NCBI GenBank assembly: GCA_030595835.1
Contig: JAUVLG010000002.1
Coordinates: forward strand, 19,147 to 83,146
DNA: 64,000 bases
From: Candidatus Eiseniibacteriota bacterium
GTDB taxonomy: Bacteria; Joyebacterota; Joyebacteria; Joyebacterales; Joyebacteraceae
Direction: 5' to 3'
Within the stretch, counting starts at the first letter, position 1. Every line of letters begins with the position of its first letter. The notes under the pieces are model-generated. The model was given only the letters and a program-made list of their open reading frames with translations, was not told the origin of the DNA and did not search any database. Made by a program: the position numbers and the translations under genes. Shown one piece after another: positions 9,486-55,790 of the stretch.

Positions 9486-12400
9486 CTACTTGAGCATCAC
9501 CATCTTCCTGGTCGCGTTCCAGGTGTCCACCGACAGGCGGCAGAAGTAGACGCCGGAGGCCACGGATTCCCCGTGGTCGTTCCGTCCGTCCCAGCTGGCA
9601 ACGTGGTTGCCGGCGTGCCCCGTCTCGTCCAGCACCGTGGCGATGCGCCTGCCCGCGACGTCGTAGATGTGCATCCGCACTCTGGCTCCGTCGTTCGCCA
9701 CCGAGTATCGGATCGACGTCGACGGATTGAAGGGATTGGGCGAGTTCTGCGAGAGCCGGTTGGCTCGGCCGATTCCGACGTCATCAACGCCGGTCGTGCC
9801 TATCAGGTCAGAGCCGTCCAGTATGCGCGTGACGTACTCGAGGCGTGTGGATGGATGAGAGCCGTCGGTCATTCCGCCCAGCAGGACTGGCACCATGTAG
9901 CGGCGGCCGCCCGTAGCAGCGTCGACGTAGAGCGCGCCGCGTTCCAGCCCGGCCTGGTCGAGCCAAACGAGCTCAGTGCCCGCGTCACCGTTCGGTCCCA
10001 CCTCACCCACGAACTGATCGCTCCATCCCTGGTAGTCGTAGTCGAACGACAAATCCTGCGTCGGCTCTCCCGATTGCCCGGCCACGGACTCGACGTTTCC
10101 GTCTCCCTTGCCGAGCCCGGTGACGTACGTTGCGTGGAATCTGTTCCAGAGGTCGAGCGCCGTCGGGCTGCCGTTGATGTAGTAGGAGCCGCCGAACATC
10201 GGCTCCTCGACGTAGACGTCACCGCCGGCGTCAAGAAAGCTCGTGAGCGCGGCCGCCTCGTCGTCGGTCATCTGCACGTTGGCGCCCGGTTCTCCGAAGT
10301 TGACGACGCCACCGAGGTAGATGATGAGTTCGAAGGGGGAGAGGTCGGCGGGGAGCGTCTCGGAGACGGAGTACAGCTCACCGACCGACTCGAGGGCCTC
10401 GATCCACGGTATCTCGCTGCCGTCGGCCGTGGTGTAATCGTCCCCGATCCCGTCGAACGGCTTATCGCCGTCATCGGCATCCCACAACAGGATGCTGGAG
10501 TTCACGCTGGCAGCGATCGGCCCCTTGGACCACACTTCCGTCCGCTCGTTACCCGAGAGGTCGACGGCGGTGAGCGCGTAGTAGTAGTGCTGCTTGTTCT
10601 CCGCAGTGACGTCGGTCCAGTCTGTCATGGCCGCGTCCAGCAGGTCCGTTGCTATGGGCGTCATCTCGGTGACATCCGAGAAGCGCTCGGTGTCGCGGTA
10701 GACCCGGTAGTGCGCGAAGTCGGACGGAGGTGCGTAGCCCGCCCAGTCCAGAAGGATGGCTCCACCTACGTCGAACGGATCGGCGGGTATCAGGTTATCG
10801 ACGGCCGCCGGGGCGTCTGTGTCCGGGGGCTGGTCGACGATGGACATGCTGCCCTCGTAGGGAAGGATGCCCTGGCCAGTGACCACGATCGTCATCGTTC
10901 CCTCGACGGTCGGCGCCGGAGACAACGTCGCCACGCCGTCGGGTCCGGTCGTCGCGACGACCGACAGCTCGCTGCAGGACAGGAACACGGTGGCGCCGTC
11001 GATCGCCTCGCCGTCTCGCGACACGGCCACGAGCAGCTCGTGCTCACCCAACGGTATCTCGCCGGCGTGCGCGACAGTGGACGTAACCGGATTCCTGGTC
11101 CATATGCGAGTCTCGGGATCGCCGAGCAGGTTGAGTTCGTAGAGAGTGTAGCGCGTGTAGCGTTCGGATCTCGCCAGTTCGACGAACGCGTCCTTGTGGG
11201 CCGCGTGGGCGACTCCCGCGTGCTCCAGTCCCTCGTTGAAGAGCTTGCTGAAGAACTCCCTGTCGAACTCGTCGCCGGTTCCATTGCCGGGGTTGCCGGG
11301 CGAGCCCCATCCATACCGGCTGTTGCCGACGTAGGCTATCCCGCCGCCGCCCGGTGAGTTGAGCCAGTGTTCCGCTATGCAGTCCCTGTCTATTGCCGCG
11401 GACCAGCAGCCCATTGAGTAGAACAGGCCGTAGCGGGGAGCGTTGGTCAGACCGTCGAAGTCCGAGCGGTAGAGCGCTCCGCTTCCGATGCACAGGACCG
11501 TCGTGTTGGCGTGACCGTTGTGGTTGATGATGTTGTAGCCGGTGTTCATCGCGGCGACGGCGCTCGAACGCGACAGGTTACCGCTCGTCTCATAGAGCTT
11601 CGTGATGGGATCGTATAGCTCCGGCACCGACTCGTCGTCGATCATGTTCTTGCAGATGGCGTGATCGGTCCAGGGGTTGGTCCAGAGAACCTCGGCCATG
11701 AAGAGTATATTCTCCAGATAGTCCGTCGGCAGCGGGTCGCCTCCCGGCGCTCCCTCGTAGGTCAGGACCTTGTTGACGAAGCGCGCGGCCTCGGTCGTGT
11801 TGTCGACCGGAGCGCGCCCGACGAACACGTCGGCATACATATCGATCTCGTCGAGCGAGATCTGGCCATACGTGCCGTTGCCGTTCGCGTCCCACGTGCC
11901 ATCGAGGTCGCCGTAGTACAGGTCGCAGCGGATCTGGTCTTCGTCCGGTGCGCCGCCGACGCCGGATGTCATTGCGTAGACCGTGCGGGCCGGGACGACG
12001 CCGGTGTCGCCTCCAAGAAGCACCCACATCGTGCCTTTGTTCTCGTAGTAGTCGATGATGCAGTTCCGGATCTGGTCCTGCTCGTCGACACCCGTGTAGT
12101 TGGAGTAGATCCACGTCGTGGTCACTACCTCGGTCGTCAGCCCCTTCTGCGCCTTCCAGTCAGCCAGTGTCTGGAATGTCGATTCGTAAGCGGAAGGAGC
12201 GATGATCAGGTAGTCGACCTCGCCGCGGCCGGCTCTGGGACCTGCCGATCGATCGATCACGTCTTCCGGATTGACGACGAGCGAGCGCGAACGCTCCGCG
12301 GCGGCGCTGGCCGACCTTGCGGAGAGCGGACCCGGGACCCGGGCCGTATTCGGCGCGAACTCGATCTTGAGAGATATCTCAGTGGTCTCATTGACGTAAA

Positions 12401-12902
12401 GCTTCCGCTCGGAGGCCACATACTGGACAGGGTAGAACGCAACGGTCGCGATCCCCTGGCCGGAGGCTGAGCCCGAGCCCAGGAGGACGCAGCTTCGCTC
12501 GGGGTAGGGACGCGACGATGCGTATGCCTCGGCATCCGCGTCGACCCAGGCAGCCGCCTCGAGTGTCGAGAGCGGTACCTCTGGCTGGCGTGGCCGCACC
12601 AGGAATGAGCCGGGACGTTCGCCCCGCGACAGGACCGTCGCCTCCGCACTCACCGCCACTGCCCCGTCTGGGAGAGCGAACCTGACGAGCATGAGCGGTA
12701 GTTCCGGGTACCCTTCTTCATGCGTCGTCAGTTCGCCTCGAAGGCGGACGACATCGAAGCCGTCTACCTGCTCGACGAAGAGATCCTGTTCCGCTACCTC
12801 CACTGTCGTCGTCAGCGCACTCTGTGACGCGAGAGCCATAGACGTGAGGGCGCAGAGAGCGGCGACAGTAGACAGCACTATCCGAAGACCGGACAGGCGC
12901 AT
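9486..12902 (-). CDS. Secreted C25 (gingipain-like) cysteine peptidase with FN3-like domain and FlgD-like/T9SS C-terminal sorting domain (1138 aa)
   Basis: Signal peptide MRLSGLRIVLSTVAALCALTSMALA. C25 core: VDYLIIAPSAYESTFQTLADWKAQKGLTTEVV...WVLLGGDTGVVPARTVYA; NHNGHAN His motif and SMGCWSAAID Cys motif. C-terminus NSPNPFNPSTSIRYSV...IYDVAGRRIATVLDETGHAGNHVASWDGRNDHGESVASGVYFCRLSVDTWNATRKMVMLK. Confidence 0.85.
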   Translation of the reverse strand: MRLSGLRIVLSTVAALCALTSMALASQSALTTTVEVAEQDLFVEQVDGFDVVRLRGELTTHEEGYPELPLMLVRFALPDGAVAVSAEATVLSRGERPGSFLVRPRQPEVPLSTLEAAAWVDADAEAYASSRPYPERSCVLLGSGSASGQGIATVAFYPVQYVASERKLYVNETTEISLKIEFAPNTARVPGPLSARSASAAAERSRSLVVNPEDVIDRSAGPRAGRGEVDYLIIAPSAYESTFQTLADWKAQKGLTTEVVTTTWIYSNYTGVDEQDQIRNCIIDYYENKGTMWVLLGGDTGVVPARTVYAMTSGVGGAPDEDQIRCDLYYGDLDGTWDANGNGTYGQISLDEIDMYADVFVGRAPVDNTTEAARFVNKVLTYEGAPGGDPLPTDYLENILFMAEVLWTNPWTDHAICKNMIDDESVPELYDPITKLYETSGNLSRSSAVAAMNTGYNIINHNGHANTTVLCIGSGALYRSDFDGLTNAPRYGLFYSMGCWSAAIDRDCIAEHWLNSPGGGGIAYVGNSRYGWGSPGNPGNGTGDEFDREFFSKLFNEGLEHAGVAHAAHKDAFVELARSERYTRYTLYELNLLGDPETRIWTRNPVTSTVAHAGEIPLGEHELLVAVSRDGEAIDGATVFLSCSELSVVATTGPDGVATLSPAPTVEGTMTIVVTGQGILPYEGSMSIVDQPPDTDAPAAVDNLIPADPFDVGGAILLDWAGYAPPSDFAHYRVYRDTERFSDVTEMTPIATDLLDAAMTDWTDVTAENKQHYYYALTAVDLSGNERTEVWSKGPIAASVNSSILLWDADDGDKPFDGIGDDYTTADGSEIPWIEALESVGELYSVSETLPADLSPFELIIYLGGVVNFGEPGANVQMTDDEAAALTSFLDAGGDVYVEEPMFGGSYYINGSPTALDLWNRFHATYVTGLGKGDGNVESVAGQSGEPTQDLSFDYDYQGWSDQFVGEVGPNGDAGTELVWLDQAGLERGALYVDAATGGRRYMVPVLLGGMTDGSHPSTRLEYVTRILDGSDLIGTTGVDDVGIGRANRLSQNSPNPFNPSTSIRYSVANDGARVRMHIYDVAGRRIATVLDETGHAGNHVASWDGRNDHGESVASGVYFCRLSVDTWNATRKMVMLK

Positions 12903-13275: not shown

Positions 13276-14502
13276 TTACCTGTAGAGCGCCTTGATCTGT
13301 GTCCAGGACGTGTTCTCCACCGGGCTCTCGTGGTTGCCCAGGAATGTGACGTCGTCGATCATGGCTCCGGCATCACCACCACCGGCAGGCCCGCATCCAT
13401 TGTCTGTGGTGTACATCACCCACAGGAAGCCGCCCCAAGTGTAGGGACCGGGGAAGTCGAACTGCGTGATGTCATAGCCGATGTTGTAGGCCGTGCCACC
13501 CCAGCCGTCGCACGAACCGAAGTCGCCCCAATACGCCGCGATGCCGTAGTAGTCGGCGCCGTTGGATGTGCCGTTGAAAGTTATGTAGTCGTTGTCGACC
13601 GTCGGGATCGCGAAGTGGATGGCGAACCGGACCGTGCAGCTCAGGGCGCCTACCAGATTGACGAGAGGAGAGTAGAGGGCATTCTGCAGCATCGGCGGGA
13701 CGAAGCTCGTGTCGGCGTCATCACCACACCACCAGCTGTGCGGGTCGCTATAGGCCGGGCAGCACCTGTCGATCAGGTGCCAGAAGTCACCGGCAGCGCC
13801 GGGAACGGCCGGGATCAGATTGACCTGGTCGTCGGCGTTGTCGTAGAAATACACATAGCCGCCGAAGTAGTCAAAGACCTTGACCATGTCGCACATGAAA
13901 CCACCACCGACGGACAGATAGAGAGCGTCCTGATCGGACCAGGCGCCGTCCGACAGGAAGCGGAAACGAGCGTTGAGCGGATTGTCGTATGTAGCGAGGA
14001 TGAAACCGTAGAGACCAATGTCGGTCCACGGCTGCGTCCCGTCGTAGCCACGGTTCAGGTCCACGAAGACGCCGAGGCTCTCGGCCTGCACGTACGTGTA
14101 GTCGTAGCCCGTCTCCGAATCGTGACGGAACGCGTATGTCAGGATCGGATACGTGGCGCCGCTCAGGTCCAGCGTCGGGATGACCAGTCTGTCGTCCCAG
14201 CTGTTGCCGTAGCCACCGTCGGCGTCGTAGTCGAAGTTGCCGCACCACCAGGAGTGTGCGCCCTCGTAGGCCATATACGTGTCAATGTGGAAGTGCGGGG
14301 ACGCGCCGGCGCTGAAGTCGGCGGTCGAGTACCCGCTGACGTCACCTTCCATGTCGTCAAACGAGAACTCAATGTTAGGCCATCTCTCACTCTCATATCC
14401 GATATCGTAGACGGGTGAGGCGACCAGCTTGCTGGCCTGGACCTGCCCGCACGCAAGTATCACGAGCGCGAGCGCCGTCAAAAGGATCGTCGTCCTCTTC
14501 AC
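13276..14502 (-). CDS. Secreted hypothetical protein built from two tandem ~170-aa modules sharing an HSWWCG motif (possible beta-sandwich adhesin/MAM-like modules)
   Basis: Signal peptide MKRTTILLTALALVILACGQVQA. Internal duplication: ...YEGAHSWWCGNFDYDADGG...GGGFMCDMVKVFDY versus ...YSDPHSWWCGDDADTSF...GGDAGAMIDDVTFLGN. The plus-strand ORF over the same region is R/V-rich antisense junk. Confidence 0.6.
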   Translation of the reverse strand: MKRTTILLTALALVILACGQVQASKLVASPVYDIGYESERWPNIEFSFDDMEGDVSGYSTADFSAGASPHFHIDTYMAYEGAHSWWCGNFDYDADGGYGNSWDDRLVIPTLDLSGATYPILTYAFRHDSETGYDYTYVQAESLGVFVDLNRGYDGTQPWTDIGLYGFILATYDNPLNARFRFLSDGAWSDQDALYLSVGGGFMCDMVKVFDYFGGYVYFYDNADDQVNLIPAVPGAAGDFWHLIDRCCPAYSDPHSWWCGDDADTSFVPPMLQNALYSPLVNLVGALSCTVRFAIHFAIPTVDNDYITFNGTSNGADYYGIAAYWGDFGSCDGWGGTAYNIGYDITQFDFPGPYTWGGFLWVMYTTDNGCGPAGGGDAGAMIDDVTFLGNHESPVENTSWTQIKALYR

Positions 14503-16056: not shown

Positions 16057-16153
16057 CATCGACTTGCAGTGAACGTGTTGTTGGGACGCAACTTGTTGTG
16101 CCCGCGGCCTGTCAGAACATATGGAACCTCGTTCCGGATGCCCTCCTGGAGTG

Positions 16154-16924
16154 ATGGACGGAACAGCCATGTCCGAACGCCCTCAGTACATCACGAAGAT
16201 CCGACGCGGACGCGAGCGGCGCTACCGGCGCACGATCGCCTGGTCGACCGCCGGAGCTGTCGTCTTCCACATTCTGTTGGTTTTGATAATCGCTACCTTC
16301 AGAGAGCGGCCCCATCTCGTCATGCGCAGTGGCTACAGGGGAGAGTTCCGCCTGCTTCCGGCGATCTCGATTCTGAGGGAGCCGGACGTGACGGAGAGCG
16401 AGGCGCAGGCCAGAGGCAGAGAGTTGGGGAGCTCCGGTTTCACGGTGGTCAACCTGGTCGTTGCCGAACACGCGCTGTCGAGGAAGACCCCGATCGAGTC
16501 CGAGGTCGAGGAGCTGGATCGGGCACTGGGGGATGACCCCCGGAATCTGCGCGATACATCCCTCCCGCAGCCTGCCGGCCAGGAGATCGTGATCGAACAC
16601 CTCGTGGAGCCCATCTACCCGCAGTCCGCGATCGACCGGGAGATCGAGGGCGTGGCGGTCTTCGTGATCAGCGTGGATGCGACGGGCGAGGTCCGCAACG
16701 CCCGGCTCGTCGAGTCCGAGGTCAGTGGGGACTGCAACATCGAGGCGCAGCGCGCGCTGCTGCAGTGGAGGTTCGCTCCTTATCTCGTCGATGGCAGGGC
16801 GATTCCCTTCCACAAGTTCTACCGGATACAATTCGACCTCCTCGATGAGTTCCAGCGCGTCCAAGAGGCTCGTTCGAGAGAGAAGAAGCGGCGTGCGCTG
16901 CCTGCTCCACGAACTGCCCCGTAG
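16154..16924 (+). CDS. TonB-family protein (energy transducer TonB C-terminal domain)
   Basis: N-terminal TM segment (TIAWSTAGAVVFHILLVLIIATF) and a C-terminal TonB-like domain (IEHLVEPIYPQSAIDREIEGVAVFVISVDATGEVRNARLVESEVSGDCNIEAQRALLQWRFAPYLVDGRAIPF). Start is ambiguous (ATG 16154 or 16169). Confidence 0.7.
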   Translation: MDGTAMSERPQYITKIRRGRERRYRRTIAWSTAGAVVFHILLVLIIATFRERPHLVMRSGYRGEFRLLPAISILREPDVTESEAQARGRELGSSGFTVVNLVVAEHALSRKTPIESEVEELDRALGDDPRNLRDTSLPQPAGQEIVIEHLVEPIYPQSAIDREIEGVAVFVISVDATGEVRNARLVESEVSGDCNIEAQRALLQWRFAPYLVDGRAIPFHKFYRIQFDLLDEFQRVQEARSREKKRRALPAPRTAP

Positions 16925-17051
16925 AACACACACCCGCCGGCCGTGCGGGCGGGCACGCTCCCGTCCTTGACACGAGCCTGTCCGCTGGGCGAGACTCGGC
17001 GGACGTCCGGGCGCACTGCGCGCGGCGACTGACGACACTCTCCCGAGCGAG

Positions 17052-18965
17052 GTGCAGATGAGTTTCAACAGGCGCTCCAGGTTTCCTCTCGCGCGGGCGT
17101 GTGCCGCCGCGCTTGTCGCCACGGTTCTTCTGGCGATACCCGCGGCGAACGGTGCGCGGGCGGACACTCCCGAGGGGTACTTCGTTTCCGTGGAGGAACT
17201 GAAGCGGGGCGACAGGTGCGTCGGGCGGACCGTTTTCGTCGGCACCGAGATCGAGGAATTCGAGCTTCTGATACTCGGAGTGATCCGCGGCGCCGCGCCT
17301 GGCACTGACCTCATAATCGGCAGGGCGGGAGGTGCTCTGCTCGAGAGAACCGGGATACTCGAGGGCATGAGCGGCAGTCCAGTCTACAAGGACGGGAGGC
17401 TCATCGGCGCGATCTCGTCGACGTGGCAGTTCAGCAAAGAGCCCATCGCGGGGATCACCCCGATCGGAGAGATGCTGCCGGCGCTGGAACTGATGGACAC
17501 AGAGGGTCACGCGAGCGGCCGCCCTGGCCTGGATGAACTTCCAGGGCTCGCTATGCTGCCCGAGGGCGAGAGGGCTGCTTCGTCTCTCGCGCGGATCTGC
17601 GATACGGCGGGTATGCTCGAGCGGCGGATCGACCTGCACTCCGCATCGAACGCGGTCGCGTTCGGTGATCGTGTGCTGTCCCCAATAGCGGCCCCTCTGG
17701 TCGTCTCGGGCGCGAACGCGGACTACGTCCATCGCGCGTCCCGAATACTCGGGCCCGGAGTTGCGCCGCTGCTCGGATCCGGCGTCGCGCCCGGCCCCGC
17801 GGCTGTCCCCGGGTCTTCGTCGGGAGCGGGATGGAACGCCGGGGAACTCGAGCCCGGTTCCGCCGTGGGGATCCAGTTCGTGAGAGGGGACGTCAACTGG
17901 ACCGCGATCGGCACTGTCACACATCGCGACGGCGACCGACTTGTCGCGTTCGGCCACCCGCTCTTCAACGCGGGAGCCATCGACATGCCGATGGTTGCAG
18001 CCTTCGTCCACGCCGTCATGCCCATTCAATCCATGTCGTTCAAGTATGCGTCCGGGGGAGAACTCCTCGGGACCATCAAGGAGGACAGGAACAGGGCCGT
18101 GGCGGGCATCGTTGGCCCGGGACCGCCCATGGTCCCGTTCACGGTGAACATACGTGCGAATGGCGGCGAGCGCCTCTTCGAGTTCGAGACGGTGAGCAAC
18201 CGCCCCTACACTGCGCTCTTCAGTGGCCTGGCCTTCGGCGGGGCGGTATCGAGCGCCGTGAAGGCCTCGGGTCCCGTGACCGTCGACATGAGCGTCCGGA
18301 TCGACACCGGGGAGGAGATGGTGGAGTACCGCGACGTCTTTCACACGACCGAGCCCGCGATGAGGTGCAGTGGCGAGCTGTCGCTCCTTCTGTCGTTCAT
18401 CGCGGAGAACGCGTTCGAGGAGAGGGAGCTTCGGGGAGTCGAGCTCGATGTGACCATTCGGGAGGGAGATTCCTGGACGGTGATCTCTCGTGTCGACGCC
18501 GACAGGAAGGTCTACCGGCCCGGCGACGACGTGACGCTCCGCCTGTTCATGCGTCCCCGACAAGGCGACCCGTTCGAACGCGAACTGTCCCTGCGGATCC
18601 CCAACTCGATCACGCCCGGCGCGCTCACGGTGCGAGTCGGCGATGCCGTGTCGTTCCATCTGGGTGAGCGGGACCGGCTGGCGGCCGGAGCGGCGCCGCG
18701 AAGCTACGAGCAGCTCCTGAATCTCATCAGGGACGCCAAGCCCGGGAACATCGTGGTCGCCCAGCTGCTCTCCGACAGCCCGAGCCTGTCGCTGTCGGGG
18801 GACGAGATGCGCGGTATCCCCGGTCGGGCGGGCCTCGCGATGGCGTCGAGCGCGACGAGCGGGGCCGTCGATCCGTCCATGTTCTCCGTGCTGAGAGAAC
18901 GCGAGCTCGCCGTTGAGGGCCAGGTTGTGGGGTCCTTCGAGATGACCATTCACGTCAGGGAATAG
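17052..18965 (+). CDS. Secreted protein with SpoIVB/S55-like GMSGSP serine motif (divergent, possibly non-canonical peptidase)
   Basis: Signal peptide MQMSFNRRSRFPLARACAAALVATVLLAIPAANGARA; the motif LEGMSGSPVYKDGRLIGAISSTW closely resembles the SpoIVB (MEROPS S55) active-site Ser region. No His is found upstream within the short N-terminal region, so the catalytic architecture is uncertain. Confidence 0.55.
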   Translation: MQMSFNRRSRFPLARACAAALVATVLLAIPAANGARADTPEGYFVSVEELKRGDRCVGRTVFVGTEIEEFELLILGVIRGAAPGTDLIIGRAGGALLERTGILEGMSGSPVYKDGRLIGAISSTWQFSKEPIAGITPIGEMLPALELMDTEGHASGRPGLDELPGLAMLPEGERAASSLARICDTAGMLERRIDLHSASNAVAFGDRVLSPIAAPLVVSGANADYVHRASRILGPGVAPLLGSGVAPGPAAVPGSSSGAGWNAGELEPGSAVGIQFVRGDVNWTAIGTVTHRDGDRLVAFGHPLFNAGAIDMPMVAAFVHAVMPIQSMSFKYASGGELLGTIKEDRNRAVAGIVGPGPPMVPFTVNIRANGGERLFEFETVSNRPYTALFSGLAFGGAVSSAVKASGPVTVDMSVRIDTGEEMVEYRDVFHTTEPAMRCSGELSLLLSFIAENAFEERELRGVELDVTIREGDSWTVISRVDADRKVYRPGDDVTLRLFMRPRQGDPFERELSLRIPNSITPGALTVRVGDAVSFHLGERDRLAAGAAPRSYEQLLNLIRDAKPGNIVVAQLLSDSPSLSLSGDEMRGIPGRAGLAMASSATSGAVDPSMFSVLRERELAVEGQVVGSFEMTIHVRE

Positions 18966-18972
18966 CAGCGGA

Positions 18973-21132
18973 GTGGGCCACAACGGGCCCCTGGGAGGTT
19001 CGATGCAGAGAGTTCTGACGACCCGCCGCACATGCGCGGTACTGCTCGCGGCGACGCTGTCCTCGGCGGCGATACTGTGCACACTCGCGCCGGACGCGCT
19101 CGCCGTCTCAACGTCTTTCTGGAAGACCGACTCGTTCGTGACGGCGGAGGAAGGACGCCTCGAAGGGGTTTCCGTTCTGCGCGACGGGCGGATAGTCCTG
19201 TCACGTGAGTTGGAGATGCTGGATACACCGGAGGCGCAGTACGTGTGGTCCGGCGAGGGCATGGGACGTGGGGTCGTGGTGGTTGCGGGCACGCCCGGGA
19301 GGGTGCTCAGATTGGGCGACGGCGATCCGGTCGAGCTTCTCAGTTTGGAGACGGCTGATTTCCCCGCGATGGCGGTTTCTCCCGAAGGCAGCGTTTTCGT
19401 CGGGACGGCGCCGGGCGGCGAGGTCTACATCATCACGCCCGACGGCGAGAGCCGGCTCTTCTTCGAGACGGGCGAGGGCTACATCTGGAGCATGGCTTTC
19501 TCAACTGATCACGGGCTTCTCGTCGGCACGGGCGACGCCGCGAAGGTCTACGCGGTTGACAACGGCGGATCGGGGGTCGTCATCTACGAGTCGAGCGATG
19601 CGAGTGTCTCCGCTCTGGCCGTCACGGACGGCAGGGTGCTCGCGGGCACCAGTATCGACGGGCTCCTGCTGGACATCACGCCAGGCAGTGACCTGCGGGT
19701 GTTGTGCGACTCCTGGTACGATGAGATCTCCGGTGTGGTGCGCGGCACGGACGGTACCATCTTCTTCGCGGCCACCAGCGTGTCGCTCGAGGACATACTG
19801 GACGGCAACGGAAACGGCGACAGCGGCTACGGCTCGGGCTTTGGCGAGGGAGCCGTGTTTCGGATTACACCCGGCGGGGGTGCAGTCGAGCTATGGCATT
19901 CGCGGAGCGCGCCCGTTACCTCACTCGGGCTTTCGCCGGACGGCCTGATACTGGCGGGCACGGGGTCCGGCGGCCGGATCTACGCCGTGGGCCACGACGG
20001 CACCGCCGATCTGGTCGCGGAGCTGGAGGGGGAGGAGGTGCTCTCTATCCGGGGTACCGGAGACGCGATCGTGACCACCGGCGCGCCGGGAGCGGTCTAC
20101 AGGATGGGCCCGGACACAGCCCGGTCCGGTGAGTACGAATCGGAGGTGTTCGATGCGCGCTCGACATCTGCCTGGGGTGAACTGGCGTGGAAGGCGGATG
20201 TGCCCGCCGGGGCTGGCGTGGAGTTCTTCGCGAGGTCGGGCAACACCGGTGACCCGGACGAGACGTGGAGTGAGTGGACGCCTGTCGCAGGGAGAGGGGG
20301 CGGGCAGATCGTGAGCCCCTCGGCGCGGTTCCTCCAATGGAAGGCCGTGTTGAGCCGAGGTTCCAGTGGGGCGGGCCCCGAACTGCTCAGCGTGGAGGCC
20401 GCCTACCTGCGCGAGAACCTCCCGCCTCTCGTGTCGTCCGTGACCGTATACGAGCCCGGCGACATCGTCACGGGCCCCGCCGGCGGAGCGAACGATTCCT
20501 CCGTCTCGCAGACTCTGCCGGGTGGAGTCGAGGTGACATACTCGCTCGACCCCGTTGCGTCCCCTGACCGCGAGCTTCCTGTGCTCCTGCGCGGGATGAG
20601 AACGGCGTCGTGGGAGGCGCTCGATCCGAACGGTGACGCGCTGTCGTTTGATATCTACCTGAAGTCGGACGACGAGGAGGACTGGAAGCTAGTAGAAGAA
20701 AGCGTCCTTCGGCGGACGCTGCACACCTGGGACACTGCTGCGATGACCGACGGTGTCTACCGACTGAAAGTGAAGGCGACAGACCGGCAGTCCAATCCGA
20801 AGGAGTCCACGCTTACGGCTTCGGCAGAAAGCCCGCCCTTCACTGTCGATCACACGCCGCCCGAGTTCACGCGCGTCGATGTCTCCTCGTCGGCCGGCGG
20901 GCTGACCGTCAGTGGAGTTGTCACGGACGCGGCCAGCCAGGTGATGTTCGTCGACGTGTCCGTCGACTACGGCGTCTGGAGACCGGCGTTCGCGGACGAC
21001 GGCATGTTCGATTCGTGCAGCGAGTCGTTCAGGCTTGTGATAGAGGGGCTGGAAGAGGGGGAGCACGCCGTGTCAGTGCGGGCGGCGGATCGCTCCGGGA
21101 ATCCCGTCGTCGTGCGGAAGTTGTCGTGGTAG
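18973..21132 (+). CDS. Secreted beta-propeller protein with C-terminal Ig-like/Y_Y_Y-like domain (sensor-ectodomain-like)
   Basis: Probable signal peptide from the internal Met (MQRVLTTRRTCAVLLAATLSSAAILCTLAPDALA). Repeated G-x-V/I-x-x-G-T/S blade-like motifs. The C-terminal region (DGVYRLKVKATDRQSNPKESTLTASAESPPFTVDHTPP) resembles the Y_Y_Y domain found after two-component regulator propeller repeats. Only 8 nt separate it from the preceding gene. Confidence 0.55.
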   Translation: MGHNGPLGGSMQRVLTTRRTCAVLLAATLSSAAILCTLAPDALAVSTSFWKTDSFVTAEEGRLEGVSVLRDGRIVLSRELEMLDTPEAQYVWSGEGMGRGVVVVAGTPGRVLRLGDGDPVELLSLETADFPAMAVSPEGSVFVGTAPGGEVYIITPDGESRLFFETGEGYIWSMAFSTDHGLLVGTGDAAKVYAVDNGGSGVVIYESSDASVSALAVTDGRVLAGTSIDGLLLDITPGSDLRVLCDSWYDEISGVVRGTDGTIFFAATSVSLEDILDGNGNGDSGYGSGFGEGAVFRITPGGGAVELWHSRSAPVTSLGLSPDGLILAGTGSGGRIYAVGHDGTADLVAELEGEEVLSIRGTGDAIVTTGAPGAVYRMGPDTARSGEYESEVFDARSTSAWGELAWKADVPAGAGVEFFARSGNTGDPDETWSEWTPVAGRGGGQIVSPSARFLQWKAVLSRGSSGAGPELLSVEAAYLRENLPPLVSSVTVYEPGDIVTGPAGGANDSSVSQTLPGGVEVTYSLDPVASPDRELPVLLRGMRTASWEALDPNGDALSFDIYLKSDDEEDWKLVEESVLRRTLHTWDTAAMTDGVYRLKVKATDRQSNPKESTLTASAESPPFTVDHTPPEFTRVDVSSSAGGLTVSGVVTDAASQVMFVDVSVDYGVWRPAFADDGMFDSCSESFRLVIEGLEEGEHAVSVRAADRSGNPVVVRKLSW

Positions 21133-21246
21133 CTCTTCCTACGGGGCTTTCCGGTCCCGCGAAACCCCAGGAGGGCGTCCGGAGTCACATGTACGTGGAG
21201 TTGCAGCTACTTCTGGTCTCTCGGGGTCAGGTCGGAGGTCTCACGG

Positions 21247-21783
21247 GTGGATTGCACGGCGAACAGACGACTGATGGACGAGAAGCTGGATGGGAACATC
21301 ACGGCCGACGACGCGCGCGCCCTCGAGGCGCATCTCTCCGCGTGCTCCTCATGCCGTCGCGAATGGGAAGTCCTCGTCGCGGTGGATCGGGTGCTCGCCG
21401 ATGTTCCACTGGAGCGGGCGCCGGCCGGGTTCGAGCAGTCCGTCGTTGCTGAGATAGTCCGGTGCGTGGAGGCCCGCCGCCGGAGCGAGTCGATCGGCAT
21501 CCCCGTTGCCTGTGGTGTGGCTGCCGTCGCGGCAGGCTACGGCGTGCACCGCGTCGTGAACTGGGAGGCCGCGCGCTCGTTCGTTCGTGGGATAGGCGAG
21601 GCCGCGAACGGAGTACTGGCGCCGCTCGCCGAGCCCCTTGCAAGAACGCCCGACTTCGTGACGACCTGGTCACAGGAGCCGGGCGCTGTTGGTGCCCTGC
21701 TTGCGCTGGCCGTGGCCGCTGTCTTCTTCCTTGGCTTGAGCGCCCTCCGATTCGTCAGACAGAACGCTTTCGAGTGGCACTAG
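21247..21783 (+). CDS. Anti-sigma factor, zf-HC2 type, with C-terminal transmembrane segment
   Basis: GTG start with GGAGG 8 nt upstream; zf-HC2 motif ARALEAHLSACSSCRREWE; C-terminal TM segment AVGALLALAVAAVFFLGLSAL. Confidence 0.65.
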   Translation: MDCTANRRLMDEKLDGNITADDARALEAHLSACSSCRREWEVLVAVDRVLADVPLERAPAGFEQSVVAEIVRCVEARRRSESIGIPVACGVAAVAAGYGVHRVVNWEAARSFVRGIGEAANGVLAPLAEPLARTPDFVTTWSQEPGAVGALLALAVAAVFFLGLSALRFVRQNAFEWH

Positions 21784-21882: not shown

Positions 21883-22326
21883 CTACTCGTCGTCTCCGGA
21901 AACGACCCTGACAGATTCACCGGTTCCGCCTGTCGGCGGGCTGAAGATCACGGGCTCGCCGTTCTGTTTCTCGTCTCCCACGACCTTCCTGCGGATCGCG
22001 TAGTAGATGATAAGGCCGAGCCCGACGAAGAACGGAACGAGCGCGCCGGTCAGGGCGTCGTTCAGCACGCCGAGCGCAATGAAGCCGATGAAGAGCGCGA
22101 TCCCGATGGCCGTGAAGAAGATACCCCAGCCGAGTGTGGCTGTGCCGGAGCTCTTCTTGCCCGCGATCAGCCGGTAGTCGTAGATGCCCTTGTCGAGCGT
22201 TTTCTGGTAGGTCTGCTGCCTGATCTCCTGGGAGCGGTTGATGCCCTTCATGATGAGCATGATCATGAGAACGCCACCGGCTATCGAGACCAGGGCCGTC
22301 AAGAAACTGAAGAAGAACATGTGCAC
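21883..22326 (-). CDS. Hypothetical membrane protein (3 predicted TM segments)
   Basis: ORF trimmed to the GTG/ATG after the RBS GAGGAGG: MFFFSFLTALVSIAGGVLMIMLIMKG...ATLGWGIFFTAIGIALFIGFIALGVL...LVPFFVGLGLIIYYAIRRK; the longer N-terminal extension lacks an RBS. Confidence 0.5.
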   Translation of the reverse strand: MHMFFFSFLTALVSIAGGVLMIMLIMKGINRSQEIRQQTYQKTLDKGIYDYRLIAGKKSSGTATLGWGIFFTAIGIALFIGFIALGVLNDALTGALVPFFVGLGLIIYYAIRRKVVGDEKQNGEPVIFSPPTGGTGESVRVVSGDDE

Positions 22327-22667
22327 GGTCGCCTCCTCGTTGTTTTTCCCACCGCGGTCGTCCCGAAAGGAAAGGGTTGGTTCCCGAACGTCCGGCCCGC
22401 GGCAGAGCCCCATTGTCACTCTCTTTACCGTACGCTATGACACCTCTTCCGATCGGGGTGTTTCAGGGGCGCGAGCGGGACCGGGGATATTCCAGGGCAA
22501 AGGCTGCGGGTTCCCGGGTCTGAAACGCCTCATTGTGGGCAAAAGCGCTTGGATTCTGAGGTCCTTCTGGTAGCATTGTGGGTTGAACCTGGCTGGTCGG
22601 CACGCGGACGCGCGGCCCGAGCAAGTGCCTAGCTGGCCGCCGCCCGTGGGCGGGCGCGGAGGAGCCT

Positions 22668-23279
22668 TTGGCTGGGTCGAACCTGACGCGTGAGTACACG
22701 CCGACGGATGAAGAGCTGATCGCGAGAGTCCTGGCCGGCGACGAGGCGTCCTACGGGACGCTGGTCACCCGGTACCGGGACTACGTGTACACGATCGCCG
22801 TACGGATCGTGGGAAGCGATGAGGACGCGGAAGACGTCGCTCAGGAAGCGTTCGTCCGAGCGTACCGCGCGCTTCCCAGGTTCAGAGGGGACTCCAAGTT
22901 TTCGAGCTGGCTCTACCGCATCGCGACCAACCGCGCGCTCACACATCTGAAGAAGCGCCGGAGGCGAGCGGACACCGTCGACATCGAGTCGGGGTCTCAC
23001 GTGGAGGCCGTTGTCATCGACGACGGCCGCGGCGAGGTAGCGAGTCCGGAGCTTCTGGTCCGGAATGAGGAGTTCAGGCGTGCGGTTCGCGCCGCCGTTC
23101 TCGAACTTCCCGAGCAGTACCGTGTCGTTGTTACGCTCTTCTATCTGGAGGAGAGAAGCTACAAGGAGGTAGTGGCCACACTCGGGATTCCCATGGGAAC
23201 CCTGAAGACGCACCTGCATCGCGCAAGGGCGCTGCTCAGGGACATCCTCACGAAACATCATCTGGAAAGCGGGAGGTAG
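22668..23279 (+). CDS. RNA polymerase ECF-type sigma-70 factor
   Basis: 203 aa; region 2 (YRDYVYTIAVRIVGSDEDAEDVAQEAFVRAYRALPRFRGDSKFSSWLYRIATNRAL) and region 4 (LPEQYRVVVTLFYLEERSYKEVVATLGIPMGTLKTHLHRAR). TTG start as given by the ORF track. Confidence 0.85.
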   Translation: MAGSNLTREYTPTDEELIARVLAGDEASYGTLVTRYRDYVYTIAVRIVGSDEDAEDVAQEAFVRAYRALPRFRGDSKFSSWLYRIATNRALTHLKKRRRRADTVDIESGSHVEAVVIDDGRGEVASPELLVRNEEFRRAVRAAVLELPEQYRVVVTLFYLEERSYKEVVATLGIPMGTLKTHLHRARALLRDILTKHHLESGR

Positions 23280-23281: not shown

Positions 23282-24097
23282 TTGGACAAGAGCTGTCTCG
23301 ATACCATACTCGACAGGCGCAGCATCCTGAAGTTCAAGGACGACGATGTCTCGTCCGACGTGCTGGACAAGGTGCTCCACGCGGCGCTCAGAGCATCCGG
23401 ACCGGGCGGAACGCTGAAGGGTGGGTACAGGGGTTCCCAGCCGTTCTCCATCATAGTGGTACGCGACCGCGCCAGGCGCGCGCAGCTCAACGAGCTTCTG
23501 TGCGAGGGCAGAAGGCCCTGCATCGAGAAGGCGCCGGTCTCGCTGGTCTTCTGCGTGGACACGCACCGCATGAACAGGTGGTGTGCCCTCGGCGGGGGCG
23601 CTCCTCACTTCAAGGGCATAGGTGTTCTGTGGGTGGCCCTGAGAGGCGTCTACACGGCAGCGCAGAATGCGGTCCTCGCCGCCGAGTCGCTGGGGCTGGG
23701 TTCGCAGTACATCCAGGAGATAGTCTGGCAGCCTTACACAACGCTCGGCTTCTTCCAGCTGCCGCCGCAGGTGCTCCCAGTCGCCATGCTGATCATTGGT
23801 CACCCCGAGGAGCGTCCACAGCTTGCACCGTCGCTCCCGCTTGAGGCCATCGTCCACAGGGAAGTCTACAGCGATCCGTCCGATGAGGAACTCGTGGAGT
23901 ACTTCGCCGACAAGGAGAAGTACTTCCAGGACTGGCTGGAGGGCCTTCCGGAGGACTCGAAGCTCAAGCGTCACATCGAGTCCGAGGGAGTGACCACTCT
24001 GGCACAGTGGGTCTCGCAACTCACCTACACCGAGAGCTTCTACAAGTGGAGAGACGACGCGGTCCGCACCAACCTGCACCTCTCTGAGCTGGAGTAG
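23282..24097 (+). CDS. Nitroreductase-family flavoprotein
   Basis: 271 aa; LDTILDRRSILKFKDDDV...VLHAALRASGPGG... is a nitroreductase/NADH-oxidase fold N-terminus. It starts 3 nt after the sigma-factor stop, so it is co-transcribed. Confidence 0.8.
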   Translation: MDKSCLDTILDRRSILKFKDDDVSSDVLDKVLHAALRASGPGGTLKGGYRGSQPFSIIVVRDRARRAQLNELLCEGRRPCIEKAPVSLVFCVDTHRMNRWCALGGGAPHFKGIGVLWVALRGVYTAAQNAVLAAESLGLGSQYIQEIVWQPYTTLGFFQLPPQVLPVAMLIIGHPEERPQLAPSLPLEAIVHREVYSDPSDEELVEYFADKEKYFQDWLEGLPEDSKLKRHIESEGVTTLAQWVSQLTYTESFYKWRDDAVRTNLHLSELE

Positions 24098-29120: not shown

Positions 29121-29161
29121 CCGCAGTGAAGCCTGAGCGGCGCAGGCCTTCGGGGGAACGG

Positions 29162-31432
29162 ATGGACGAGACGAAAGACACCAGCAGAAAAGGCCTCCTG
29201 AGTCTCTTTAGGAACAGGGACTTCTCGCTTCTGTGGGCGAGTACGGTCGCCTCGCAGCTGGGCGACCACCTCAATCTCATGGCCCTTACGGCTCTCATTT
29301 TCTCCATGAGCGCCGGCGCCATCAAGGGCCTTGAGTTCTCGAAGATCCTCCTCCTCGCAAGTGCTCCCGTGCTTATCTTTGGTCCGATCTCAGGTGTCTA
29401 CGCGGACCGGCTCTCCCGCAAGAAGATGATGATAATCTCGGACGTGCTGCGAGCGCTGCTGGTTGCTTCCATACCGTTCGTCGCCCGTTCGATGACCTAT
29501 GTCTACGTGATCCTCTTCATCGTTTTCACGATCAACCGCTTCCACCTGTCGGCCAAATCGGCGGCGGTTCCTCAACTCGTCACGAAGGACCGGCTCCTGG
29601 CTGCTAACTCCCTTCTGAGCGTGGCCATGATGGCGGCCATCATGTTGGGCCCGTGGGGTGGCGGACTGCTCGTCGAGCGGTTCGGTTTCACCGTCGGATT
29701 CCTTGCCGACTCGGGCACATACATCATCTCCGCGGCGTTCGTAACCTTCATCACCCTGAAGAGCATGTCCGAGGTGAAGGAGGCGCGTCAGCTGGAGCAC
29801 GCGGCACTGCGGCACGCGCTCGGCGAGACGGCCAGGGAGACCCTGAGGTCGCACTCGCCCTCGGAGCTGGCCGGCGGCGCGGCGAAGCTGGGCCGGGAGA
29901 TCGCGGCTCCTCTGGAGGAGGAGGTCGAGGTCATCGGTTCCGCCTACCATCGCCTCATTGCCGATCTCAAGGACGGTGTGGCGCAGATGCGGGGCAACCG
30001 ACTGGTGGTCTACTCCACCGTCTCTTTCTCCGCCATCATGTTGATCGCCGGGTTCGTGCTTATCGCATGCCCGGTGCTCGTGCGGAACGAGTTCGGACTC
30101 GGTGCGGCCGACGTGGGAATGCTGTTCTCCGTCGGCGGCGTGGGCATGCTCGTGGGTTCGCTCGTGGTAGGCAGGTTCTTCCACAAGACCCAGCGGAGGG
30201 CGATCATCACGGTCAGCTTCCTCTTGTCCGGCATCGTCATTCTGGTTCTTTCGACGGTGGGTTCCATCCCTGTTTTCGGCGTGTGGATATTCACGCTGGG
30301 TCTGCTCATTGCGCCGACAATGGTCACCTGCGACACGATCCTCCAGGAGAAGATGCCGCCTGAGGCCGTTGGAAAGGCCTTCGGGTTCCGCGAGATGGTC
30401 AGTAAGGCGGCGTTCGGGGTGGCCGGAATCGTCTCTGGCATCGTCGTCGACATCATAGGTCCACGGAACCTCCTGGTGGTTCTAGGGGCGGCGGCCATCG
30501 GGTACTCCGCATTCTCGCTGGTTCTCCTTGCGGACACGTCCAAGCTCAACCTGCTCAACGTCTACCCGCTGCTCAGGGCGGGCTCGGGGCTGGCCGCACG
30601 TCTGCCGCGCGCGGTGAGCTACCGATTGGCCTCGGTACTCTCCGGCATCGCCTTCCTCGTGATGTCCGACAAGCGGAGAGGGGCAAGTGAGAACATATCG
30701 CGAGTGATTCGGAAGCACCCGGAGAGCCCGGAGGTCAGGGCGCTGGTCAGGCGGATGTTCCGAAGCTACGGCCTCTACTGGGCTGATTTCTTCGGGCTGA
30801 ACGGGAGGACCCGCGGCAAGGTGCACGAGATCGTGCGTACCGAGGGGCTCGAGCATCTGAAGGAAGCGCTTCGCGGCGGCAAGGGCGCGCTCCTTGTGAC
30901 GGCACATCTGGGCAATTGGGACATGGGAGGCGCGGCTCTGGTGGAGACCGGCGAGTTTCCCGGGCTCTCCGCAATCGTGGAGCCTGTCACGCAGAGAGCG
31001 TCCGAGAAGACCGTGACCTCCATGCGCGAGAGGCGTGGAATAAAGGTCATCCCGCTCGGGAGGCCGTTGGGGATAGCCCGGGCCCTCAGGCGAAACGAGG
31101 TCGTCCTTGTGGTCGGCGAGCGTCTGATCAACGGCGAGGGTGTCGAGGTCGACTTCTTTGGTGAGAAGACCCTGTTTCCCAGAGGCGCGGCGTACTGGTC
31201 AGCGAAGCTCGGTGCTCCGATACTCCCCGGTTTCTGCATTCGTCAGCCCGACGGCACCTTCGTCAGCCATATCGAGGCCCCGCTCACGCTTGCGGTTGAG
31301 GGAGACGGGGGGGGCGACGAGGTGGCACACACTCAGCAGCTGGCCAGTATCATTGAGGAGTACATCGCTCGTTACCCGGAGCAGTGGTGCATGCTGCAGC
31401 CTATATGGGGCAGCGTGGGAGGGCGCTCTTGA
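29162..31432 (+). CDS. MFS transporter fused to LpxL/HtrB-like lysophospholipid/lipid A acyltransferase domain
   Basis: N-terminal 12-TM MFS (LFRNRDFSLLWASTVASQLGDHL...). C-terminal domain carries the acyltransferase H-x4-D motif (VTAHLGNWDM) and LpxL-like context (RMFRSYGLYWADFFGL...GKGALLVTAHLGNWDMGGAAL...FFGEKTLFPRGAAYWSAKLGAPILPGF). Start taken at ATG 29162; the ORF track's GTG at 29126 lies 6 nt after the preceding stop. Confidence 0.75.
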   Translation: MDETKDTSRKGLLSLFRNRDFSLLWASTVASQLGDHLNLMALTALIFSMSAGAIKGLEFSKILLLASAPVLIFGPISGVYADRLSRKKMMIISDVLRALLVASIPFVARSMTYVYVILFIVFTINRFHLSAKSAAVPQLVTKDRLLAANSLLSVAMMAAIMLGPWGGGLLVERFGFTVGFLADSGTYIISAAFVTFITLKSMSEVKEARQLEHAALRHALGETARETLRSHSPSELAGGAAKLGREIAAPLEEEVEVIGSAYHRLIADLKDGVAQMRGNRLVVYSTVSFSAIMLIAGFVLIACPVLVRNEFGLGAADVGMLFSVGGVGMLVGSLVVGRFFHKTQRRAIITVSFLLSGIVILVLSTVGSIPVFGVWIFTLGLLIAPTMVTCDTILQEKMPPEAVGKAFGFREMVSKAAFGVAGIVSGIVVDIIGPRNLLVVLGAAAIGYSAFSLVLLADTSKLNLLNVYPLLRAGSGLAARLPRAVSYRLASVLSGIAFLVMSDKRRGASENISRVIRKHPESPEVRALVRRMFRSYGLYWADFFGLNGRTRGKVHEIVRTEGLEHLKEALRGGKGALLVTAHLGNWDMGGAALVETGEFPGLSAIVEPVTQRASEKTVTSMRERRGIKVIPLGRPLGIARALRRNEVVLVVGERLINGEGVEVDFFGEKTLFPRGAAYWSAKLGAPILPGFCIRQPDGTFVSHIEAPLTLAVEGDGGGDEVAHTQQLASIIEEYIARYPEQWCMLQPIWGSVGGRS

Positions 31433-49299: not shown

Positions 49300-49317
49300 G
49301 CGCGGTCACGCGCTTCA

Positions 49318-49410
49318 AGGGCCGTTTCCCTACGCTGGCATTGCCCAGTTCAGGTTCACGGGGTATCATTCTCAGACCCTGGCGGGCCACCCCCAACGAC
49401 TCCTATGTTA
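49318..49410 (-). ncRNA. TPP (THI-box) riboswitch
   Basis: Reverse complement of 49321-49400 reads GUCGUUGGGGGUGGCCCGCCAGGGUCUGAGAAUGAUACCCCGUGAACCUGAACUGGGCAAUGCCAGCGUAGGGAAACGGC, containing the conserved GGGGUG, CUGAGA, ACCC, CCUGA and GCCAGCGUAGGGAA elements of the TPP aptamer, upstream of thi4. Confidence 0.85.
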
Positions 49411-51845: not shown

Positions 51846-51920
51846 CTTCCATGTGGTAGCGCCAACGGGAATCGAACCCGTGTTACCGGCTTGAGAGGCC
51901 GGCGTCCTAACCGCTGGACG
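51846..51920 (-). tRNA. tRNA-Glu (anticodon CUC), CCA encoded
   Basis: rc: GGCGCCAUCGUCCAGCGGUUAGGACGCCGGCCUCUCAAGCCGGUAACACGGGUUCGAUUCCCGUUGGCGCUACCA; cloverleaf with anticodon loop CUCUCAA. Confidence 0.85.
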
Positions 51921-51929
51921 ATGGCGCCT

Positions 51930-52003
51930 TCACTTTGTGGTTGGGGAGGGAGGATTCGAACCCCCGCCGGCGGATCCAGAGTCCGCTGTCCTACCACTAG
52001 ACG
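51930..52003 (-). tRNA. tRNA-Gln (anticodon CUG), CCA encoded
   Basis: rc: UGGGGAGUCGUCUAGUGGUAGGACAGCGGACUCUGGAUCCGCCGGCGGGGGUUCGAAUCCUCCCUCCCCAACCA; anticodon loop CUCUGGA. Confidence 0.85.
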
Positions 52004-52018
52004 ACTCCCCAGATCGTC

Positions 52019-55108: not shown

Positions 55109-55459
55109 ATGGACGATGCGGGTCACACCACAGAGAGCGCACGGGCGGGGGAGACTCAGTCCGAGGCGTGTGAGAAGGCGGCGGAGCTTCTTCGCGCCCT
55201 CTCGCATCCCGTCCGGCTCAGGATCATCAAACTCCTGGGCGAGGGAGAGCTGTGTGTGAAGAGCCTCGAGGAGATACTCGAGATCTCGCAGTCGTCCGTC
55301 TCGCAGCATCTGACGCGCCTGAGGTACGCCGGACTCATCGAATCCGAGCGCAGAGGGCATCTCGTCTGCTACCGACTGGTCAAGGGCGGTGCGGCGAAGG
55401 TAGTGGAAGCGGCATTGGACGAGTCACAACAGAGAAACTCAGGAGAGGAAGGTAGCTGA
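55109..55459 (+). CDS. ArsR/SmtB-family transcriptional regulator
   Basis: LLRALSHPVRLRIIKLLGEGELCVKSLEEILEISQSSVSQHLTRLRYAGLIESERRGHLVCYRL is the ArsR-type wHTH. Confidence 0.8.
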   Translation: MDDAGHTTESARAGETQSEACEKAAELLRALSHPVRLRIIKLLGEGELCVKSLEEILEISQSSVSQHLTRLRYAGLIESERRGHLVCYRLVKGGAAKVVEAALDESQQRNSGEEGS

Positions 55460-55460
55460 C

Positions 55461-55784
55461 ATGAGTAAGACAATGGCCGGAACCGATGGGAACTTCGAAG
55501 TCGAGGTCCTCAAATCTGACAAGCTGGTGGTGGTTGATTTCTGGGCGCCCTGGTGCGGGCCGTGTCGTCTGGTCGGTCCGATCCTCGAGGAGATCGCGGA
55601 CGACAACGACGGCAAGCTCAAGGTGGTGAAGGTCAACGTCGATGAGAATCCCGCGCTCGCGCAGCACTACGGGATCCGCGGCATTCCGACGATGATGTTC
55701 TTCAAGGGTGGTGAGCAGGTCGACATGACCGTCGGCGCCGCCATGAAGAACAGTATTCAGGAGAAGGTAGACGCCCTGCTCTAG
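55461..55784 (+). CDS. trxA: Thioredoxin
   Basis: 107 aa; VVDFWAPWCGPCRLVGP...NPALAQHYGIRGIPTMMFFKGGE is canonical TrxA with a WCGPC active site. Confidence 0.9.
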   Translation: MSKTMAGTDGNFEVEVLKSDKLVVVDFWAPWCGPCRLVGPILEEIADDNDGKLKVVKVNVDENPALAQHYGIRGIPTMMFFKGGEQVDMTVGAAMKNSIQEKVDALL

Positions 55785-55790
55785 TCGGAC

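Follow-up and report, generated by a model that had tools for sequence, protein, structure and literature searches.

A 64,000-nucleotide (nt) stretch of the genome of Candidatus Eiseniibacteriota bacterium (assembly GCA_030595835.1, contig JAUVLG010000002.1, positions 19,147 to 83,146 of the forward strand), hereafter the window, contains three successive genes, here called A, B and C. They encode a secreted homologue of the sporulation protease SpoIVB, a secreted propeller protein and a membrane-anchored anti-sigma factor. The locus raises the question of whether these genes constitute a single envelope signalling module, as a preliminary description of the sequence had supposed, or belong to separate units. 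Comparative analysis indicates that A and B are an old, widespread two-gene pair. Protein A is best read, from sequence comparison, as a circular permutant of the S55 peptidase fold, in which the Ser-bearing barrel is encoded ahead of the His-bearing barrel. We give about an even chance to the explanation that A and B are an exported protease–adaptor pair acting on envelope proteins, with the sigma factor unit as a mere neighbour. The features of the three genes are as follows; residues are counted in amino acids (aa).

17052..18965, plus strand: gene A, secreted S55-family (SpoIVB-like, clan PA) serine protease homologue, 637 aa, known from the open reading frame (ORF), PF05580, homologues and an AlphaFold2 (AF2) model; domain order: signal peptide, Ser barrel, insert, His barrel, C-terminal beta-sandwich and alpha/beta domains.
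17175..17513, plus strand: Ser-bearing beta-barrel of A, residues 42–154, homologue of the SpoIVB C-terminal barrel (hhalign, PDB 9lnf, conservation).
17364–17384, plus strand: GMSGSPV of A, residues 105–111, S107 being the presumed nucleophile (translation).
17838..18122, plus strand: His-bearing beta-barrel-like region of A, residues 263–357, with conserved D280, H302 and D345 (conservation, model, hhalign).
17946–17960, plus strand: AFGHP motif of A with H302 (translation).
18973..21132, plus strand: gene B, secreted propeller protein, 719 aa, conserved partner of A (ORF, PDB matches, AF2 model, Foldseek, synteny).
21247..21783, plus strand: gene C, membrane-anchored zf-HC2 anti-sigma factor of the zinc-binding anti-sigma (ZAS) type, 178 aa (PF13490, hydropathy, sequence).

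The window has a G+C content of 62–66%. The three co-oriented ORFs, A then B then C, lie at exactly the coordinates at which they were first placed and are tightly spaced, as had been noted; the spacings of 8 and 115 obtained by subtraction correspond to 7 and 114 intervening bases. Database relatives begin A at M3 and B at M11 (P0001, 635 aa; P0121, 709 aa), and the gap between A and B is 7 nt or, with the M3 and M11 starts, 37 nt, depending on the choice of start. Hydropathy analysis indicated a single N-terminal hydrophobic segment in each of A and B, that of A comprising residues 11–35. An 856-aa antisense ORF (16722–19292, minus strand) spans the end of the TonB-like gene upstream of A, the whole of A and the start of B. 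It was rejected as a gene. Antisense ORFs of this kind form clusters among the loci and are attributed to the high G+C content together with the conserved codon structure.

The assignment of A to the S55 family is based on a match to the Pfam family Peptidase_S55 (PF05580) with 36.9 bits (gathering score 25, E 5e-9), which bears out the earlier description of a secreted protein with a SpoIVB-type GMSGSPV motif. The match is confined to profile positions 117–201 of 210, the Ser-bearing half, and is located right behind the signal peptide. With the SpoIVB equivalog model NCBIfam TIGR02860, A scores 30.6 bits, below the cutoff of 305.25. The sole solved relative found by sequence is SpoIVB (9lnf), where residues 49–134 of A match the C-terminal barrel of the chain; the other barrel is not upstream in A, because only the signal peptide precedes residue 49. 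Pfam searches of A gave no match to a PDZ domain and a weak match to MG2, below its cutoff. The insert at residues 140–265 shares no similarity with the SpoIVB profile.

More than 2395 homologues of A were found in the protein database; an exact-match look-up of P0001 gave no record. Conservation was assessed in an alignment of 33 relatives, then extended to 110, down to about 30% identity. Two blocks are conserved: residues 53–141, which hold S107 and S109, and residues 269–355, with D280, T288, T290, H302, S329, K331, D345 and R346, each of these residues being present in at least 95% of the 110 sequences. The AF2 model of A (predicted local distance difference test score, pLDDT, 83.6; predicted template modelling score, pTM, 0.83) has a six-stranded beta region at residues 55–137, a partly disordered insert at 140–262 and a second six-stranded region at 271–354, followed by the beta-sandwich and alpha/beta domains up to the C-terminus. 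A Foldseek search of the PDB with this model yielded partial matches (113–119 columns) with a probability of about 1 to HtrA, DegS, MucD, Rv3671c and 3C proteases, with weak E-values of 5e-3 or worse. The matched length is about half of the chymotrypsin fold, as expected with an altered sequence order in A. Within the second block, S329 and K331 form an S-x-K motif (window positions 18036–18044) inside the His barrel, with conservation of 95% or more among members of the A family.

The second barrel was identified by profile–profile comparison with hhalign, using an alignment of full-length SpoIVB representatives numbered according to P0363. Residues 42–154 of A align with SpoIVB residues 303–415 (probability 98.7%, E 4e-16), and residues 282–357 align with SpoIVB residues 205–293, AFGH of A being placed over the invariant ALGH (E 2.7e-4). 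The match of the His region was repeated with larger alignments (110 against 109 sequences; E 1.3e-4), and in a column-shuffle test none of 200 shuffles reached the real score of 32.0 (mean of shuffles 14.3, standard deviation 2.8). The P0363 numbering is offset by 9 from that of B. subtilis, and the aligned residues correspond to His236 and Ser378 of SpoIVB, which are its named catalytic residues (PMC12502668). The two barrels are therefore encoded in A in the order opposite to that in SpoIVB. Three results weigh against the assignment of the His region. In one of three versions of the comparison, a less diverse sub-alignment put a different 30-column segment first. The profile of the His region gave chance-level matches only when compared with PDB sequences. 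An artificially re-permuted A (residues 263–345 placed before 44–145) was tried against Pfam and PDB sequences and set aside, the S55/SpoIVB match staying within the Ser half. We regard the evidence for the His region as good but not overwhelming.

The catalytic residues of A may be proposed from these alignments. The nucleophile motif of chymotrypsin is GDSGGP, and S107 is taken as the presumed nucleophile of A because of comparison with this motif. D345 lies 43 residues past H302, near the spacing of 45 between His and Asp in chymotrypsin; D280 is equally conserved. An alignment of D345 with an Asn of SpoIVB, obtained in one hhalign run, was dropped as it was not repeated in larger alignments. 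In the preliminary description, the lack of an obvious catalytic His upstream of the Ser was taken as a sign that A may be divergent or non-catalytic. This view does not hold, as the conserved H302 lies downstream of the Ser and the conservation argues for activity. An active enzyme is favoured because the catalytic-type residues are conserved, and A is probably active, using S107 and H302 with D345 or D280 as the acid. The opposite case, a catalytically dead pseudo-protease that keeps an S55-like scaffold for binding only, within a structural envelope complex with B, would agree with the match to just half of the S55 model, with the weak Foldseek E-values to proteases and with the triad acid being without a secure assignment. 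However, GMSGSP, H302 and two aspartates persist across the 110 sequences, a pattern typical of active enzymes, and even SpoIVB has an atypical third catalytic residue (PMC12502668). We consider a dead scaffold very unlikely.

Protein B was described earlier as a secreted propeller with a Y_Y_Y-like C-terminal domain. The propeller is confirmed by three approaches. Sequence matches in the PDB are designed propellers and pyrroloquinoline quinone (PQQ)-like propellers. The AF2 model (pLDDT 86.6) comprises a beta-propeller at residues 48–390 with seven to eight four-stranded blades, a jelly-roll at 393–480 and two immunoglobulin-like (Ig-like) domains at 486–718. The top Foldseek matches include the periplasmic domains of BT4673, BT4663 and BT3049 (E 1e-10 to 1e-9), with template modelling (TM) scores of just 0.2–0.33, these being low because those proteins carry two propellers; single seven-bladed propellers superpose on B with target-normalised TM-scores of 0.65–0.78. 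The Y_Y_Y assignment was not upheld: no Pfam family matches B above its cutoff, Y_Y_Y (PF07495) is unmatched at E <= 0.1, and PF07495 is not among the 25 listed of the 28 Pfam families that match 32 relatives of B. Reg_prop (PF07494), also named in the preliminary description, is present in 20 of these 32 relatives and unmatched in B of the window; Big_13 or Big_3_3 is found in up to 13 of the 32. B stops at residue 719 and has no transmembrane segment beyond the N-terminal hydrophobic one and no kinase, receiver or AraC Pfam domain. The suggested resemblance to the periplasmic parts of Bacteroides hybrid sensors is thus supported by structure, and membership of the sensor-kinase family is not.

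The relationship between A and B was studied in a genome scan that provided 80 loci, 81 with the window. The loci derive from Acidobacteriota (Vicinamibacteria, Blastocatellia, Terriglobia, Aminicenantes), Gemmatimonadota, Latescibacterota, WOR-3, Eisenbacteria and Planctomycetota (Kuenenia, Scalindua). A homologue of B is encoded directly downstream of A, on the same strand, in 54 of the 81 loci, which represent at least six phyla; this corresponds to 54 of the 73 loci that have at least 3 kb downstream. Eight of the 27 loci without an adjacent B terminate less than 300 nt past A. The remaining 19, mostly from Pyrinomonadaceae, with two from Terriglobia, count against the pairing. In one gene-called example the two genes overlap by 4 nt, and in an independent protein database matches to A and B occur on common contigs (e.g. 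those sized 2,220,267, 432,515 and 614,963). The genes beyond A and B vary by lineage; judging by a reading of the sequences they include housekeeping genes for MutS, MutL, riboflavin synthesis, SecA, EF-P and shikimate dehydrogenase. Most lineages with the pair have no sigma or anti-sigma factor gene nearby.

These observations can be accommodated by the following mechanism for an exported protease–adaptor pair. Genes A and B would form an ancient two-gene operon, read as one transcript and encoding exported proteins. A would be a clan-PA S55 serine endopeptidase with its beta-barrels in swapped order relative to SpoIVB: the Ser barrel, with S107 in GMSGSP, behind the signal peptide, and the His barrel, with H302 and D345 or D280 as the acid, about 150 residues later. 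The active site, probably intact, would lie at the interface of the barrels. B may form a complex with A; its propeller and Ig-like domains most likely bind a ligand or substrate, presenting it to A or gating access, by analogy to the propellers of tricorn and of enzymes of the prolyl-oligopeptidase type. Envelope proteins are the probable targets. Since housekeeping genes surround the pair in many phyla, a role in housekeeping processing or quality control is suggested.

The third gene and its surroundings require a separate account. The features next to the three genes are:

16121..16924, plus strand: membrane protein with a TonB_C domain, upstream of A (PF03544, E 1e-11).
21883..22419, minus strand: DUF6249 membrane protein, divergent from the sigma factor gene (PF19762, E 1e-9).
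22668..23279, plus strand: extracytoplasmic function (ECF) sigma factor, RpoE/SigW-like, probable partner of C (Sigma70_r2, r4_2; NCBIfam sigma70-ECF).
23282–24097, plus strand: nitroreductase gene, 2 nt after the ECF sigma factor gene.

Protein C matches zf-HC2 (PF13490) with 31 bits (cutoff 22.2, E 2.7e-7) and, weakly, an RsrA-like NCBIfam model. With its two hydrophobic segments, it is the membrane-anchored zf-HC2 anti-sigma factor that had been predicted. Its putative zinc ligands are C3, H29, C33 and C36; H29-x3-C33-x2-C36 is a complete ZAS motif, and the spacing of 26 between C and H is the same as in RsrA. The hydrophobic segments comprise residues 82–100 and 143–171, with at most about 45 residues between them; about 11 residues are exposed if the second segment alone spans the membrane. 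A weak second C-like match, at 56013–56237, turned out to be a thioredoxin-like lipoprotein. The ECF sigma factor gene begins 884 nt past C, beyond the opposite-strand DUF6249 gene, and adjoins the nitroreductase gene. It is neither adjacent to nor co-transcribed with C, and the same layout occurs in relatives. As reported previously, it is the only ECF sigma factor gene nearby; in the whole window, neither a second one nor a paralogue of A or B is detectable.

The earlier proposal made a cascade of these genes: B would be the sensor of an envelope signal and A the site-1 protease that cuts C, after which an intramembrane protease would free the ECF sigma factor encoded at 22668. Such a cascade would be analogous to DegS–RseA, PrsW–RsiW and SpoIVB–SpoIVFA, and A is related to a signalling protease. 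The sigma factor is RpoE/SigW-like, and known anti-sigma factors of this group undergo cleavage. Gene C is co-oriented and begins 114 nt past B with no terminator-like site seen between them, so read-through from A and B is possible; the scans for sigma-70 promoters and terminators were themselves uninformative. Other observations count against the cascade. The exposed part of C is at most about 45 residues long, and conservation of this loop is poor; the complete ZAS motif of C is compatible with control by redox state or zinc in which proteolysis has no part. A lacks a PDZ domain, and a scan of the neighbours between 4.3 and 37.8 kb found no M50 site-2 protease. The ECF-type promoter pattern GAAC-N15-18-CGT showed no enrichment and was absent from the relevant intergenic regions.

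Synteny bears on the same question. Genes resembling C follow B in Eisenbacteria-type relatives, in which A is 41–50% identical, a point in favour of the cascade. The genes for C, the TonB-like protein, GlgC, DUF6249, the ECF sigma factor and the nitroreductase recur only in this nearest clade (loci L001, L002, L082 and L084), where the homologues of C are 28–39% identical; the TonB_C gene upstream of A is kept in these four loci only, and DUF6249 is at the same position in L002, L082 and L084. However, the clade is collinear over about 20 kb, from a C25 peptidase gene to an OPT transporter gene, with unrelated GlgC, DUF401, EamA and OPT genes included. The synteny of B and C gives no argument for a functional link, because the collinearity takes in clearly unrelated genes. 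Of the three-gene synteny expected earlier, the A–B part holds and the B–C part is limited to generally collinear relatives.

Independent support for the cascade comes from about 17 loci of one acidobacterial clade on the A tree (identity of A down to 40%), where a convergent pair of ECF sigma factor and zf-HC2 genes adjoins B, about 2.2–4.5 kb past the end of A, and the upstream genes vary. These loci are:

L004, L009, L010, L015, L018, L020, L022, L026 and L032: acidobacterial loci with the convergent pair.
L033, L039, L042, L052, L062, L067, L068 and L070: the rest of these loci.

The anti-sigma factor of the convergent pair is about 260 aa long, has a more extended C-terminal part and also shows the motif C-x25-H-x3-C-x2-C; a TonB_C-like C-terminus considered for the Vicinamibacteria protein was dropped, as it had no Pfam support. 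The recurrence of zf-HC2/ECF adjacency in two clades is a further point against separate units and could mean that both are functionally tied. Two of about 11 clades is within chance for ECF-rich genomes, according to a rough estimate (probability about 0.07–0.2), and the adjacency is suggestive only. Most A–B lineages lack nearby sigma and anti-sigma factor genes, and the cascade found no comparative support; we consider it unlikely. It is likewise doubtful that A and B are a phylum-spanning envelope signalling device, a permuted SpoIVB-type site-1 protease under the control of a sensor propeller that frees an ECF sigma factor by cleavage of a zf-HC2 anti-sigma factor. If this were true, the device would be at work in Eisenbacteria and a Vicinamibacteria-like clade at least; DegS and PrsW would be joined by a third class of ECF site-1 protease, which would indicate where SpoIVB, the sporulation protease, came from in evolution.

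Gene C more plausibly belongs with the ECF sigma factor and nitroreductase genes than with A and B, and is probably only a lineage-specific neighbour of the pair. The simplest reading is that C and the ECF sigma factor are a self-contained ECF sigma/ZAS anti-sigma unit, possibly stress-related. C, DUF6249, the ECF sigma factor and the nitroreductase would thus constitute an ordinary ECF sigma/zinc-binding anti-sigma unit beside the A–B pair. The trio of DUF6249, ECF sigma factor and nitroreductase genes (21883–23279, with the adjoining nitroreductase gene) has been kept in L002, L082 and L084; DUF6249 may take part in the regulation of the ECF sigma factor encoded at 22668–23279 or be a member of its regulon.

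The remaining neighbours could suggest that A and B are a secreted nutrient-acquisition pair that degrades protein or glycoprotein outside the cell, using the propeller to bind the polymer, and works together with the TonB-like protein, C25 peptidases and an OPT transporter. A TonB_C gene lies directly upstream of A, two giant C25 peptidase genes and an OPT peptide transporter gene are found within 10 kb, and B resembles the glycan-sensing periplasmic domains of Bacteroides hybrid two-component systems. However, the TonB_C, C25 and OPT neighbours occur only in the Eisenbacteria-type lineage, with housekeeping neighbours elsewhere. A and B do not carry the FlgD_ig C-terminal domain borne by the secreted C25 peptidases of this locus, and no TonB-dependent receptor is adjacent. 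Such a role has only a slim chance of being correct.

To our knowledge, nearly everything known of S55 peptidases comes from SpoIVB, which acts at a sporulation checkpoint in Firmicutes. The family of A is much larger, with over 2,300 clusters at 90% identity, and occurs in diderm phyla that do not sporulate. Its members are labelled in databases as "SpoIVB peptidase S55 domain-containing protein" or hypothetical, and full-text literature searches brought up no publication dealing with S55 homologues from organisms other than sporulating Firmicutes. The novelty lies in the swapped order of the barrels and in the constant presence of a propeller partner. Should A be active, it would be a natural example of a barrel-swapped clan-PA architecture, its family would be a candidate ancestor or sister of SpoIVB, and A and B would represent a conserved envelope protease–adaptor pair for study in Acidobacteriota, Gemmatimonadota and anammox Planctomycetota. 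As regards annotation, sigma-factor signalling should not be deduced from the label "SpoIVB peptidase S55 domain-containing protein".

Several other features of the window are worth recording. The two very large gingipain-like Peptidase_C25 proteins with FlgD_ig C-termini are encoded on the minus strand at 4331–9034 (1567 aa) and 9486–12902 (1138 aa); the former also bears FG-GAP/propeller repeats, and a similar C25 gene is at the matching relative position in the related contigs L082 and L084. The minus-strand gene at 13276–14502 encodes a secreted 408-aa protein with no Pfam match; it is present in L001 (47% identity) and, as genes of 410 and 418 aa, in L082. A single 768-aa ORF (29126–31432, plus strand) encodes a major facilitator superfamily (MFS) transporter fused to a lipid A biosynthesis acyltransferase domain, and recalls the pairs of lysophospholipid transporter and acyltransferase. 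A thiamine pyrophosphate (TPP) riboswitch is located at 49310–49404 on the minus strand (Rfam RF00059, 63.6 bits, above the gathering score), and two tRNA genes lie side by side at 51857–52011, also on the minus strand. A reading of translations indicated an ArsR-type regulator, a thioredoxin and a TlpA/ResA-like thioredoxin-fold lipoprotein in series at 55109–56414 (plus strand), and a second TlpA-like gene at 58045–58602.

Comparison with known systems places A closest to SpoIVB of B. subtilis (MEROPS S55, clan PA; 9lnf, PMC12502668). Both are exported, have a homologous Ser barrel with a GMSGSP-type motif and contain a His region with a GT-x-T...GH motif. In SpoIVB, however, the His barrel comes first and the Ser barrel follows, whereas A has the Ser barrel first. 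SpoIVB has a PDZ domain N-terminal to its protease domain, whereas A lacks one and extends about 280 residues further at the C-terminus, in the beta-sandwich and alpha/beta domains. SpoIVB functions in sporulators with the SpoIVFA/BofA/SpoIVFB checkpoint, which comprises the M50 site-2 metalloprotease SpoIVFB and its inhibitors; A is found in non-sporulating diderm phyla and has a propeller partner.

The DegS–RseA–RseP and PrsW–RsiW–RasP pathways are comparable in that a gene for a chymotrypsin-fold serine protease is located near those for a membrane anti-sigma factor and an RpoE/SigW-like ECF sigma factor. Unlike in these pathways, A has no PDZ sensor, and C exposes a very small segment instead of a sizeable extracytoplasmic domain. 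The sigma and anti-sigma factor genes of the window are not co-transcribed, and A and B are kept without sigma factor genes in most lineages.

The Bacteroides hybrid two-component sensors BT4663, BT4673 and BT3049 join Reg_prop-type blades to an Ig-like domain, and Reg_prop is matched in 20 of the 32 relatives of B. These sensors have two propellers, whereas B has one, and they possess Y_Y_Y, transmembrane, kinase, receiver and AraC domains, none of which was found in B. Tricorn and prolyl oligopeptidase are comparable with A and B by analogy only: in these enzymes a serine peptidase is associated with a beta-propeller, which could act as a substrate filter or present the substrates. Their peptidases, however, have an S41 or alpha/beta-hydrolase fold instead of that of clan PA, and in the A–B pair the propeller and the peptidase are separate polypeptides.

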